Below, in pieces: positions 39,017-44,307 of a DNA stretch of 49,871 nucleotides. Numbering within the stretch: position 1 is the stretch's first letter; every line of letters begins with the position of its first letter. The stretch comes from Acidimicrobiia bacterium (GTDB lineage: Bacteria > Actinomycetota > Acidimicrobiia > Spongiisociales > UBA11373): NCBI GenBank assembly GCA_040882645.1, contig JBBEAX010000047.1, positions 30,697 to 80,567 on the forward strand, written 5' to 3'. A program made the translations under genes and the position numbers. The notes beneath the pieces were generated by a model, which saw only the letters and a program-made list of their open reading frames with translations, was not told the DNA's origin and searched no databases.

Positions 39017-39610
39017 GTGCCTGGCCGCCAACTTCCAAGCGAAGAGGACGTGCGCGCTCTCGTGACGCGCGTCGTCGATTCGGTCGCCTCCTCCAACCAG
39101 CCCGCCGTCGTGCCCCCGGCAGAGGGCGGAGCGGGCGTATCGGCTGCCGGCAAGATCGCCATCGGGGCCGACCACGGGGGCTTCCGCCTCAAGGAGCGGA
39201 TCGGATTCCGGCTGCGCGAGTCCGGGCGCGAGGTGGTGGACTGCGGCACGGATTCGTCCGAGGCGGTCGACTATCCCGACTTTGCGCTGGCCGTCGCCGA
39301 GAAAGTGGCTTCCGGTGAATGCGTCGCCGGCATCGTGATCGACGGGGCCGGCATCGGGTCGGCAATGGTCGCCAACAAGGTGGCGGGGGTGAGGGCGGCG
39401 CTCTGTTACGACCTGTCCTCGGCGCGCAACAGCCGGGAACACAATCATGCCAATGTGCTCACGCTCGGTGCCGGGCTGATCGGGGAGGCGCTGGCGTGGC
39501 AAATCGTCGAGGAGTGGCTCGCCACGCCGTGGGGCGAGGGGCGCCATGCCCGTCGAGTGGCCATGATCGATGCCCTCGATGCCCGCCGGCGCATGGGGGA
39601 GGCGGTATGA
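39017..39610 (+). CDS. rpiB: RpiB/LacAB-family sugar-phosphate isomerase with N-terminal encapsulation peptide
   Basis: GADHGG, DYPD, MVANKV.G.RAA, HNHANVL, GRH.RRV; N-terminal [15 protein letters not shown]. Confidence 0.9.
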
Positions 39611-40464
39611 GCGAGCGCGACGAGCTGATCGAGGCGATCACGCGGGAAGTGCTGGCGGCGGTGGCCGGTGAGTCCTGGGATGACTGCCTTGCCTGCGTCG
39701 GTGACTGCGTCGCCCACTCGGCCGACAAAGTGCGGTCGGTGCTGGCTGCCGGTGCCACCCGGGTGTCGTTCAACGGACTCGGAGCCGACGTACCCACCGA
39801 CCTGGCGGGATTCATCGACCACACGCTGCTCCGCCCCGATGCCACCACCGCCGAGATCGACCGGATGTGCACCGAGGCGCGCGAGTACGGGTTTGCTTCC
39901 GTCTGCGTCAATCCGTACTGGGTGAAGCGGGTCGCCGACAATCTCAAAGGCACCGACGTGGTGGCTTGTGCCGTGGTCGGTTTCCCGTTCGGGGCATCGA
40001 TGCCGGAGATCAAGGCCATGGAGGCCCGCCGGGCGATCCGCGACGGCGCCCGTGAAATCGATATGGTCATCAACGTGGGTGCGCTCAAGTCGCAAGACCA
40101 CGCCCTCGTCGAGCGCGATATCGCCGGGGTAGCCGAGGCTTGCCGGGAGGCCGGAGCCGTGTGCAAGGTGATCCTCGAAACTGCCATGCTCACCGACGAA
40201 GAGAAGGTGATCGGATCGCGATTGGCCGTAAAAGCCAAGGCAGACTTCGTGAAGACCTCGACCGGTTTCGGGGGCGGTGGCGCCACGGTTTACGACGTGG
40301 CGTTGATGAGGGAGGCGGTGGGCCCCAAGGTCGGGATCAAGGCGTCGGGCGGCATCCGCAGCGCCGACGACGTCCGGCAGATGATCGCCGCCGGAGCGAC
40401 GAGGATCGGTGCGTCGGCAGGAGTTCAGATCGTGACGGGAGGGACAACGAGTGAGCGGTATTGA
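39607..40464 (+). CDS. deoC: Deoxyribose-phosphate aldolase with N-terminal encapsulation peptide and Cys-rich segment
   Basis: IDHTLL, EIDMVIN, KVILET, FVKTSTG, KASGGIR, RIGAS; ATGA overlap with rpiB. Confidence 0.93.
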
Positions 40465-41077
40465 CCTCCGGGGCTATTCGTTCCTGGACAGCCTGCAGCC
40501 CCAGTACGCGGCGTTCCTGGGCACTGTGGCCCAGGGCTTTCTCCCCCTGGCGGGGGACGCTTCTCTCTACATCGAGATCTCTCCGGGAATCGAGATCAAC
40601 CGGGTCACCGACGTCGCCCTGAAATCGACCCAGGTGAAGCCCGGGATGCAGATCGTCGAGCGGTTCTTCGGCCTTCTCGAGATCCATTCGCCATCGCAGG
40701 CCGAGGTCCGGGCCGCGGGAGCGGCCATCCTCGAGGACATCGGGGCATCAGAGAGCGACCGAATCAAGCCCCGTATCGCTTCTAGCCAGATCATTCGCCG
40801 GGTCGACGATCACCAGGCGCAGTTGATCAACCGGATGCGGCACGGCCAGATGCTCATCCCTGGTCAGACCCTCTATGTGCTCGAGATGGAACCCGCCTCC
40901 TATGCCCCGCTGGCCGCCAACGAGGCGGAGAAGGCGGCGAACATCAACGTGCTCGAGGTGCGGTCGTTCGGATCGCTCGGGCGCGTCTATCTCGGGGGCG
41001 AGGAGAGCGACATCGATGTCGGCTGGCGCGCGGCTGTCGGGGCGCTCGAGGGCCTCGAAGGCCGCGAAGCCACTTGA
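40451..41077 (+). CDS. BMC-T shell protein, double-permuted type (CsoS1D/CcmP-like)
   Basis: [46 protein letters not shown]. Confidence 0.88.
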
Positions 41078-41111
41078 TCGGTTCAAGGAAAGAAAGGAAC
41101 AGCGAAAGCCC

Positions 41112-41414
41112 ATGGCTGAAGCACTCGGAATGATCGAGACCCGCGGTTTTGCCGCGATGGTCGAGGCGGCGGACGCGATGGTGAAGGCCGCCAAGGTCGA
41201 ACTCGTGTCGTACGAGAAGACCGGTGGCGGCTACGTGACTGCCGTGGTGCGCGGGGACGTTGCCGCCGTCAAGGCAGCCATCGATGCCGGCGTTCGTGGC
41301 GCGGAGAAGGTCGGCGAAGTGGTTTCCACTCACGTCATTGCCCGCCCCCACGTCAACATCGACATGATCCTGCCGCTCGGCCGGGCCGACGAGGCCGCGG
41401 CCGAGTCTTCCTAG
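41112..41414 (+). CDS. BMC-H hexameric shell protein
   Basis: [46 protein letters not shown]. Confidence 0.95.
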
Positions 41415-43168: not shown

Positions 43169-43170
43169 TC

Positions 43171-43764
43171 GTGAACCCGGCAATCGGGCTCCTCGAGTTC
43201 GAATCGGTGGCAGCGGGAATCCGGGCAGGCGACGCAATGGTCAAACGCGGCCGGGTGGCGGAACTCGTTGCGGGCACGGTTCATCCGGGGAACTACCTCG
43301 TCCTCGTAATCGGCGAGGTGGCCGACGTGGAGGAGGCCATGGCGGCAGGCCGGGGAGTGTCCGGTGGAACGGTCGTGGACGAGGTGCTGCTTCCCGACGT
43401 CCACCCCGATGTGATCGAGGCGGTGCGCGGGGTGCGGGTTCCCGGGTCGGGTGAGTCGCTGGGCGTCATCGAAACCAGGACGGTCGCCGCAACCATCGAG
43501 GCCTCCGATGCCGCGGTCAAGGGTGCCAGCGTCTTCTTGATGGAGATTCACCTCGCGGACGGCCTCGGGGGCAAGGGGTACGCCCTCTTCTGCGGATCGG
43601 TTTCGGACGTCGAGGCTGCCGTCGCGGTCGGTGCCGCGAGTATCGCCGCCGAGTCACTGGTGGCCACCCTGGTGATTCCGCAGCTGCACAGCGAGATGGG
43701 CAACAACCTTCTGGCCGGCAGATACTTCGGTGATCGGCTCGGGAGAGACGATGCAGCTCGCTGA
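43171..43764 (+). CDS. BMC-T shell protein, single-layer type (PduT-like)
   Basis: Two BMC domains: AIGLLEF.SVA.G..AGDAMVK and SLGVIET.TVAA.I.A.DAAVK; GLGGKG. Confidence 0.88.
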   Translation: MNPAIGLLEFESVAAGIRAGDAMVKRGRVAELVAGTVHPGNYLVLVIGEVADVEEAMAAGRGVSGGTVVDEVLLPDVHPDVIEAVRGVRVPGSGESLGVIETRTVAATIEASDAAVKGASVFLMEIHLADGLGGKGYALFCGSVSDVEAAVAVGAASIAAESLVATLVIPQLHSEMGNNLLAGRYFGDRLGRDDAAR

Positions 43765-44023
43765 AGTCATCGGAACCGTCGTCGCCACCGTCAAGTACGA
43801 GGGCCTCGACGGCGTGCGATTCCTGCTGGTTCAGCCGCTGGACCGGGAGCAGGAGCCCGACGGGCAGCCGGTGGTCGCCGCCGACGCGGTGGCGATGGCC
43901 GGCCCCGGCGAACTGGTCTACATCGTGAGCAGCCGCGAGGCAGCGTTGGCGATGCCGGTGCAGTTCGTGCCCGTCGACCACGCCATCGTTGGCATCGTCG
44001 ACCACGTGGAGCGATCCTCGTGA
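43751..44023 (+). CDS. BMC-P pentameric vertex protein
   Basis: MQLAEVIGTVVATVK, AAD....GPGE, SREAA, PVDHAIVGIVD. Confidence 0.92.
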   Translation: MQLAEVIGTVVATVKYEGLDGVRFLLVQPLDREQEPDGQPVVAADAVAMAGPGELVYIVSSREAALAMPVQFVPVDHAIVGIVDHVERSS

Positions 44024-44307
44024 AGCTCGGGAGGGTCGCCGGGACCGTCGTCTCGACGATCAACCACCCGATCTTCGACAACCGCCGCCTGCTGATCTGC
44101 GACCTGCTCGACGCCGCCGGCGCCGACACCGGCGGCTACCTGATCTGCGTCGACACCGTCGGGGCCGGCGCCGGAGAGATGGTGCTCATCGTCGACGAAG
44201 GAAACTCGGCGCGGCAAGTGGTCGGTGACACCACGGCGCCGATCCGTTCGGTGATAGTGGGGATCGTGGACCAGCTGCAGGTGGATGGGGAATCGGTCGA
44301 GGTCTGA
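44020..44307 (+). CDS. BMC-P pentameric vertex protein
   Basis: GRVAGTVVST, DTVGAGAGE, EGNSAR, IVGIVD. Confidence 0.92.
   Translation: MKLGRVAGTVVSTINHPIFDNRRLLICDLLDAAGADTGGYLICVDTVGAGAGEMVLIVDEGNSARQVVGDTTAPIRSVIVGIVDQLQVDGESVEV

Follow-up and report, generated by a model that had tools for sequence, protein, structure and literature searches.

A nine-gene operon for a probable sugar-phosphate-utilising microcompartment in a small-genome, high-GC actinobacterium

What does a bacterium with a small genome do with nine consecutive genes for the shell and the enzymes of a bacterial microcompartment (BMC)? Such a set lies in a 49,871-nucleotide stretch of contig JBBEAX010000047.1 (the window; positions refer to it unless a contig is named), which comes from an actinobacterium of high GC content that probably belongs to the Acidimicrobiia. 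All nine genes stand on the plus strand at 39017-44307, in the order RpiB-like protein, DeoC-type deoxyribose-phosphate aldolase (DERA), double-BMC-domain trimer protein BMC-T(dp), hexamer protein BMC-H, pentamer protein BMC-P, CoA-acylating aldehyde dehydrogenase (AldDH), tandem-BMC trimer protein BMC-T(s) and two further BMC-P. With a probability of about 0.8, they are read here as an intact operon of the sugar-phosphate-utilising (SPU) class, whose organelle would handle deoxyribose phosphate as in the scheme already proposed for that class.

The operon and its class

The gene families were assigned by Pfam and NCBIfam profile searches of the translations of open reading frames (ORFs), and comparisons with solved structures were made against the PDB. 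All the genes listed in the preliminary description of this DNA, overlapping or nearly adjacent, were recovered in their places. Neighbouring genes overlap by 4-35 nt or are separated by gaps of 2-34 nt, and the GC content of third codon positions (GC3) is 0.74-0.90 in the plus-strand frames of the operon, as in real genes (the GC content of the window is 64-69%), which argues for one translationally coupled operon. This operon is genuine and intact, its GC content is that of its surroundings, and all four BMC-domain matches of the assembly (2.27 Mb, 105 contigs, 91.7% complete) are inside it. An ORF at 44285-44908, which overlaps the last BMC-P gene, was considered as a tenth member and rejected; its likely product is a lipoprotein that starts at about 44519.

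The operon was also met in sequencing runs. In a DNA run of the study from which this DNA likely comes, a 3116-nt piece extends over 39146-42261 with one difference, and the operon is covered almost letter for letter, which is not independent support. One contig of this run skips from 38129 to 38835, with a 25-nt side and 18 other letters between, and was dismissed as repeat-driven. Two runs labelled 'METAGENOMIC RNA-Seq', the RNA status of which is a guess, gave contigs of 159-369 nt that match parts of the operon with 90-99% identity; transcription is not shown thereby, and stretches left uncovered carry no information.

The SPU class was named in 2014 (Axen 2014, PMC4207490). A catalogue of 2021 comprised more than 280 loci from 26 phyla (Sutter 2021, PMC8217296), in 2024 a set of 206 loci was curated and the core enzymes were characterised (PMC11585597), and a preprint of 2025 extended the class to archaea (PMC12747264). 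The opinion that the class has little experimental characterisation is thus only partly true since the enzyme work of 2024. In the full-text literature, microcompartments in Acidimicrobiia were found only as mentions in reference lists, paper supplements being outside the scope of the search. The combination of DERA and the RpiB-like protein with an acylating AldDH and a complete set of shell proteins bears out the SPU assignment that had been made for this locus, and all sequence-level hallmarks of SPU that could be tested are present, save PduS, which is frequent in the class and non-universal. The host was likewise described as an actinobacterium, which agrees with its nearest named relatives, labelled Acidimicrobiia or Actinomycetota, as far as labels go. 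The class is known and widespread; the locus adds an example and changes nothing that is known about it.

Cargo enzymes and shell proteins

The aldolase is the signature enzyme of the class. It matches the solved DERA 8qps with 277.4 bits over residues 65-281, and solved DERAs align only from query residue 54-80 on, so that an N-terminal extension of about 64 residues has no counterpart in them. The extension is present in 36/36 aligned relatives, and so are the catalytic residues D152, K187 and K216, which are the equivalents of the three DERA positions named by PMC11585597. The AlphaFold2 model contains a helix at residues 3-20 (predicted local distance difference test, pLDDT, 84/73), a segment of low confidence at 21-62 and a confident barrel beyond. 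This agrees with the published account, in which all SPU DERAs carry an N-terminal extension of about 70 amino acids, a helix followed by poorly modelled strands, that is missing from non-BMC DERAs (PMC11585597). The assembly contains no second DeoC homologue, the operon DERA being the sole copy.

A separate observation concerns the cysteines of this extension. At least four are present in 24 of the 36 aligned SPU-type DERAs, in the patterns CxxCxxxCxxxC and CxCHx(5-6)CC, which suggests, at the level of sequence, a metal or iron-sulphur site. The window DERA (residues 26-37) keeps three cysteines, with a serine in place of the fourth; of 120 close homologues, 68 have three cysteines and 52 have two, and in three other Acidimicrobiia loci the cysteine segment is lost. 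When searched by terms, the main text of PMC11585597 proved to mention neither cysteines nor metals in connection with the DERA extension.

Is the product of the first gene an isomerase, as its earlier designation as RpiB implied? The membership of the family holds, with PF02502 spanning residues 47-184, and the isomerase role probably does not. Asp109 aligns with Cys66, the catalytic residue of E. coli RpiB (1nn4, 2vvr), while His142 is kept, and 22 positions, D109 and H142 among them, do not vary in 43/43 aligned sequences. The Cys to Asp exchange was reported for all SPU ribose-5-phosphate isomerase homologues (RPIs; PMC11585597, Dwyer 2024), the sole assayed SPU RPI had negligible activity as isomerase of ribose 5-phosphate (R5P), although its DERA was active on deoxyribose 5-phosphate (dR5P), and an SPU RPI was found to form an approximately 1:1 complex with DERA (PMC11585597). 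A canonical, Cys-bearing RpiB is encoded some 7 kb beyond the last gene of the operon, just past the window (contig C47:81756-82289). Because of the Asp at the Cys66 position, the published inactivity and DERA complex, and this separate RpiB, the operon protein is probably a non-catalytic scaffold or packaging partner of DERA rather than an isomerase. A predicted complex of the window's DERA and RpiB-like protein, each with its alignment, scored 0.04, below the mark of 0.32, which speaks neither for nor against the pairing. In the AlphaFold2 model of the RpiB-like protein a helix at residues 9-26 (pLDDT 80-94) is followed by a linker of low confidence (31-38) and then by the RpiB fold; a 14-residue amphipathic stretch begins with residue 10.

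The best PDB match of the AldDH is the acylating enzyme 5jfl (411.5 bits, residues 30-482), and the Cys of the conserved 'sfdnn.-.c' stretch is aligned. The dehydrogenase domain is preceded by about 45 residues, which contain an amphipathic segment that recurs in relatives. SPU AldDHs belong to PF00171 and were described as having an N-terminal encapsulation peptide in all subtypes but SPU6 (PMC11585597, PMC8217296). From sequence and models, DERA, AldDH and the RpiB-like protein would thus each possess an N-terminal helix of the encapsulation-peptide kind. On the AldDH tree eight actinobacterial-type sequences share one side of a 100/100 branch, and the putatively SPU6-like AldDHs of Anaerolineales (L055, L074) are very distant (32-34% identity) and come from loci with another gene order.

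For the shell, it had been proposed that the sequences closely resemble those of Haliangium ochraceum (HO), and this turned out to be correct for one protein of three. The best natural PDB match of BMC-H is HO-5815 (146.4 bits, residues 1-92), and this hexamer is the probable main shell tile. BMC-T(dp) ranks CcmP first (4ht5, 282.6 bits over 204 residues), ahead of HO 5v76 (253.1) and HO 5v74_A8 (232.5), and aligns with CcmP at the Glu-Arg pair which we take to be the gate of that protein; it is probably a CcmP-like double-stacking trimer and a candidate for a gated pore. BMC-T(s) is closer to PduT (3vcd, 134.8 bits) than to the HO trimer 5dih (89.0), with His37 at a pore-region position presumably occupied in PduT by a cluster-binding Cys. 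Pairwise identities among the three BMC-P range from 34 to 43%, with 43% between paralogues 1 and 3 and 35% between paralogues 1 and 2. SPU shells were reported to contain a BMC-P triplet with one member of the 'gray', one of the 'orange' and one of another clade (PMC8217296, PMC11585597).

How does this set compare with the systems known so far? The CcmP-like trimer is described as a feature of SPU2 and SPU3 (PMC8217296, PMC11585597), and the locus shares with these subtypes the extended DERA, the RpiB-like protein with the Cys to Asp exchange and an encapsulation peptide, the N-terminal peptide of AldDH, the presence of three BMC-P genes and BMC-T(s); as in them, a phosphotransacylase (PTAC) was not found. 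It differs from them by the lack of a PduS homologue in locus and assembly and by the actinobacterial AldDHs, which form a group of their own (8 rows). The gene order is that of loci with an RpiB-DERA fusion, which was reported for SPU3 (PMC8217296, PMC11585597) and seen here as one ORF in 8 loci, whereas in the window RpiB and DERA are separate genes; moreover, about 45 residues precede the RPI domain, compared with about 75 reported for SPU. The experimentally studied SPU6 locus of Chloroflexi bacterium GWB2_54_36 (PMC11585597) has the same DERA catalytic residues and extension and the same RPI exchange, but its AldDH peptide is C-terminal instead of N-terminal and its regulator is of the GntR/UTRA type, not HTH_17-like. 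The CcmP of beta-carboxysomes is the closest solved relative of BMC-T(dp), yet the context here is catabolic, with neither RuBisCO nor carbonic anhydrase, and the score of 333.2 stays below the equivalog cut-off of 340.

Distribution and genomic surroundings

At least 120 proteins are homologous to the extended DERA over their full length with at least 71% identity, and the named ones are labelled as Acidimicrobiia or Actinomycetota metagenome-assembled genomes (MAGs). Loci were compared by tblastn with the nine window proteins in species-representative genomes, and the best 80 of 585 confirmed loci were used. All nine genes in the same order were found in 17 of these 80, in several phyla, and in nine further loci the order is the same up to contig or match limits; the locus is therefore not the very compact version that it had been called, since its order is common. 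Seven of the 17 are the nearest, actinobacterial-type loci (L005-L011), and ten are from other phyla, two of them (L028 and L076) with insertions.

Within the class, BMC domains are present in 62/301 sampled genomes (the counts include the unpublished G254). They occur in 9/9 genomes of the window's own family, in 15/16, 7/7, 3/3, 3/3 and 2/2 genomes of the families f3, f4, f5, f6 and f7, and in 16/35 of f2; six positives are labelled only 'same class'. In the window's order, the majority of the sampled genomes thus have BMC genes, which are rare elsewhere in the class. In 5/5 relatives checked, BMC-H is preceded on its own strand, at a distance of about 0.66-0.9 kb, by one extended DERA. The locus is a conserved trait of the window's order, and its presence in these relatives together with BMC domains in all family genomes argues for vertical retention under selection.

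Some of the compared loci have peculiarities of their own. About 20 loci with full 8-kb flanks, mostly labelled Acidobacteriota, contain the extended rpiB-like/DERA pair or DERA alone (L013, L018, L031, L034-L036, L039, L043, L049, L054, L059, L060, L063, L065, L066, L070, L071, L079, L080, L082), and no shell genes were detected within 8 kb of them (tblastn, E <= 1e-8); they may correspond to the remote peptide-bearing aldolases of other BMC types that are mentioned in PMC8217296. In two Chloroflexota loci (L024:13084-14211, L076:13546-14670) a 375-aa response-regulator-receiver/ParA-MinD-type ATPase is encoded between AldDH and BMC-T(s), in the same interval as a 177-residue protein that matches no family, and the two may be a system for positioning of the compartment. 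In L028 the interval between BMC-H and BMC-P contains two genes for dioxygenases and one for a CitMHS-type transporter. The locus L006, labelled Kiloniellaceae (Pseudomonadota), encodes proteins 58-89% identical to those of the window and is syntenic with it into the flanks, where an ABC transporter, the HTH gene, a lipoprotein and 6-phosphogluconolactonase recur. Its AldDH groups with the actinobacterial ones, and the taxonomic label of this MAG contig looks doubtful.

The coordinates of the operon genes and of the features around them are collected in Table 1. Upstream of rpiB stands a divergent gene for a protein with a helix-turn-helix (HTH) domain, for which no NCBIfam match was found. 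Its homologue occupies the same place in 5/7 closest loci (L005, L006, L007, L009, L011) and was not found there in L008 and L010; from its position, it is likely the regulator of the operon. Arrays of the heptamer TCAAGAG flank this gene on both sides (38102-38129; 38801-38825, plus; 38834-38868, minus) and make up a long palindrome upstream of it. The array motif has 9 matches in the window, compared with 0.11 expected, and 98 short-blastn matches genome-wide. The palindrome as a conserved operator is unsupported, the array being absent from the equivalent regions of L005-L007, and a simple scan of 38783-39016 found no sigma-70-like promoter. A 49-nt inverted repeat brackets the operon, with arms 5410 nt apart, each within a GC-rich intergenic element of about 150-180 nt, and the depth of metagenome contigs peaks at both arms. 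By blastn within the same genome, the downstream piece of this element (211 nt) gave 67 matches and the upstream piece 19, on many contigs and often at contig ends. Both repeat families being dispersed over many contigs, nothing in them is specific to the microcompartment, and the inverted repeat was rejected as the mark of a mobile cassette.

Directly downstream, the small lipoprotein gene is kept in L005, L006 and L007 (37-54% identity), and the ORF with polyphosphate kinase and NUDIX domains is next to the locus in L007 too (68% identity). The other neighbours of the operon include ABC transporters and an acyl-CoA ligase. The nearby oxidative pentose-phosphate genes, which are on various strands and include the canonical RpiB, are probably housekeeping genes.

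Table 1. Operon genes and surrounding features, by position in the window
Feature	Position	Strand	Evidence and remarks
6-Phosphogluconate dehydrogenase (6PGD) and glucose-6-phosphate dehydrogenase (G6PD)	12656-15065		
HTH_17-like protein, 210 aa, HTH N-terminal, coiled-coil-like C-terminal	38150-38782	-	PF12728 25.7 bits, E 1.4e-05, below cut-off of 27
Intergenic/promoter region	38783-39016	.	TCAAGAG palindromic array 38801-38870; GC-rich repeat arm 38897-38945
RpiB-like	39017-39610	+	PF02502 177.1 bits; TIGR01120 149.9, cut-off 138.65
DeoC/DERA	39607-40464	+	TIGR00126 271.7 bits, cut-off 117.3; ATG overlapping rpiB stop taken as start
BMC-T(dp), double-BMC-domain	40451-41077	+	Pfam BMC 23.6 bits (below cut-off of 24.5); NF053796 CcmP 333.2 (below 340)
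BMC-H	41112-41414	+	PF00936 102.9 bits; start is ATG 34 nt past BMC-T(dp) stop
BMC-P paralogue 1	41433-41720	+	PF03319 94.8 bits
CoA-acylating AldDH	41717-43168	+	NF011927 599.5 bits, cut-off 403
BMC-T(s), tandem-BMC	43171-43764	+	PF00936 110.1 bits, two stretches
BMC-P paralogue 2	43730-44023	+	PF03319 90.8 bits, domain from residue 8; ATG 43751 is possible true start
BMC-P paralogue 3, final gene of the operon	44020-44307	+	PF03319 87.3 bits
Second repeat arm	44356-44404	.	94% complementary to 38897-38945
Small predicted lipoprotein, 129 residues	44519-44908	+	Lipobox-like signal, no family match
6-Phosphogluconolactonase	44917-45612		TIGR01198 154.9 bits
Polyphosphate kinase C-terminal domains with C-terminal NUDIX, 828-residue ORF	48456-49871, on to contig C47:81638	-	

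Proposed pathway, competing readings and meaning

By homology, the BMC-H hexamers would form the facets and the three BMC-P the vertices of the shell, with the PduT-like BMC-T(s) and the probably gated, CcmP-like BMC-T(dp) as larger conduits. The N-terminal amphipathic helices, as judged from sequence and models, would draw DERA, AldDH and the RpiB-like protein into the lumen. The steps of the chemistry follow from the conserved catalytic residues and the published assay of SPU6 enzymes: deoxyribose 5-phosphate would enter the shell and be cleaved by DERA to glyceraldehyde 3-phosphate, which would exit to glycolysis, and acetaldehyde, which AldDH would convert with NAD+ and CoA to acetyl-CoA. 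As the latter conversion would occur inside the shell, the volatile and toxic aldehyde would be kept confined. The same chemistry, which the preliminary description had put forward, matches the published model of the class (PMC8217296, PMC11585597).

The least supported step is the traffic of cofactors. No PduL-type PTAC (PF06130) was found in the assembly (one genome, 91.7% complete) and PTA_PTB gave only a match below the cut-off. PduS was found in neither locus nor assembly, the single Complex1_51K match being NuoF between NuoE and NuoG; neither of them encodes a dedicated alcohol dehydrogenase, and the iron-type family Fe-ADH has one weak match elsewhere in the assembly. Since PTAC, PduS and a dedicated alcohol dehydrogenase are lacking, the cofactors acetyl-CoA/CoA and NADH/NAD+ would need to cross the shell, most plausibly via BMC-T(dp). 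According to the published scheme, SPU loci that lack PTAC usually have BMC-T(dp), a possible exit for acetyl-CoA (PMC11585597, PMC8217296).

The supply of substrate is similarly incomplete. The assembly encodes two phosphorylases of the PNP/UDP family, and with the phosphorylases of the relatives a supply of deoxyribose phosphate from nucleosides is plausible. Pyrimidine-nucleoside phosphorylase (TIGR02644) was not found in the assembly, but it scores above the cut-off in 4/5 relatives, and its absence is therefore probably due to the assembly; a true lack of this step was rejected. A DeoB-type phosphopentomutase was found in 0/6 genomes (the window's own assembly and five relatives, one of them a single contig). 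PF05014, which would stand for a supply of dR5P by the nucleoside 2-deoxyribosyltransferase/DNPH1 type, was not found.

Several points weigh against an SPU organelle that handles deoxyribose phosphate. The organelle is known here from genes alone, and the subtype, SPU2 or SPU3, is only suggested by the CcmP-like trimer. An enzyme for cofactor recycling was found encoded nowhere, which leaves the steady-state supply of NAD+ and CoA inside the shell unexplained. The PduS that is absent here is frequent in all subtypes but SPU6, according to PMC11585597, although, being published as frequent and not as universal, its absence does not exclude membership of SPU2 or SPU3. Without a DeoB-type enzyme the step from deoxyribose 1-phosphate to dR5P is unaccounted for and another enzyme is needed, and the missing TIGR02644 match in the window's own assembly counts on the same side. 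Finally, the assignment of the regulator combines an HTH match below the cut-off with synteny.

One may ask if the organelle serves a different or an additional sugar phosphate, with the RpiB-like protein as an active isomerase and the deoxyribose phosphate of DNA not as main input. The strict conservation of 22 positions of that protein would fit retained ligand binding, but a structural partner would show invariant residues equally. The fusion to DERA in 8 related loci and the lack of DeoB in all six genomes are compatible with such a role, the Discussion of PMC11585597 leaves other RPI substrates open, and genes of the pentose-phosphate pathway (6-phosphogluconolactonase, 6PGD, G6PD and canonical RpiB) are nearby, which are, however, probably housekeeping genes and not co-oriented with the operon. 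The intact catalytic triad and equivalog-level DeoC score of the aldolase, together with the negligible R5P activity of the assayed RPI beside a DERA active on dR5P, make this explanation unlikely. It is also conceivable that the nine genes are a relic, silent or in decay, or a cassette bracketed by repeats and acquired recently by transfer, from which no organelle is built. In favour of such a history are the inverted repeat around the operon, its being known from DNA alone and the degenerate tetra-Cys motif in the DERA extension. Nevertheless, the bracketing repeat belongs to the dispersed family described above, the GC content is like that of the surroundings, nine frames are open with coding-type GC3, catalytic residues are intact, and the locus recurs in all five relatives checked, with BMC domains in every sampled genome of the family; a relic or cassette is thus very improbable.

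A microcompartment of the HO kind, the function of which is unknown, is more improbable still and hardly to be expected. H. ochraceum has two BMC-T(dp) genes and the window one, and that protein is nearer to CcmP, just as BMC-T(s) is nearer to PduT, even though the second and third best matches of BMC-T(dp) are HO trimers. BMC-H is near-identical to its HO counterpart in the core and most like HO-5815 among natural structures, both systems have three BMC-P, and the AldDh of HO has its relatives in SPU5 and SPU7 (PMC8217296). However, the operon opens with the genes for the RpiB-like protein and DERA, while the published main HO locus contains neither DERA nor RPI, and the DeoC-type enzyme of HO, if there is any, is elsewhere in the genome (PMC8217296).

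The SPU assignment may be carried one step further. It is possible, if rather doubtful, that this organelle is a minimal, obligate core trait of the whole lineage, with three cargo and six shell proteins, no internal recycling of NAD+ and CoA, and a feed by a phosphopentomutase other than DeoB. As the sole DERA of the genome would be encapsulated, all catabolism of deoxyribose would take place inside the compartment, and in the absence of internal recycling, dinucleotides and CoA esters would have to pass through the gated CcmP-like trimer. If this is true, no natural system would be simpler than these small-genome Acidimicrobiia for studying how a metabolosome functions without cofactor recycling.

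What then does the locus mean for the biology of its host? What remains of interest is the minimal set of enzymes, together with the unexplained steps of cofactor supply and phosphopentomutase. The operon is a clean and compact example of the most widespread and least tested class of metabolosomes, in environmental actinobacteria with few cultured members. Its nine genes, which encode a single hexamer protein, two trimer and three pentamer proteins and three cargo proteins that bear tags, make a convenient minimal system for the bench, where shell assembly, the role of an inactive RpiB-like partner and the passage of cofactors through a CcmP-like pore could be followed. In organisms of sediment and soil, encapsulated catabolism of deoxyribose phosphate may be a standing part of the scavenging of nucleic-acid debris.

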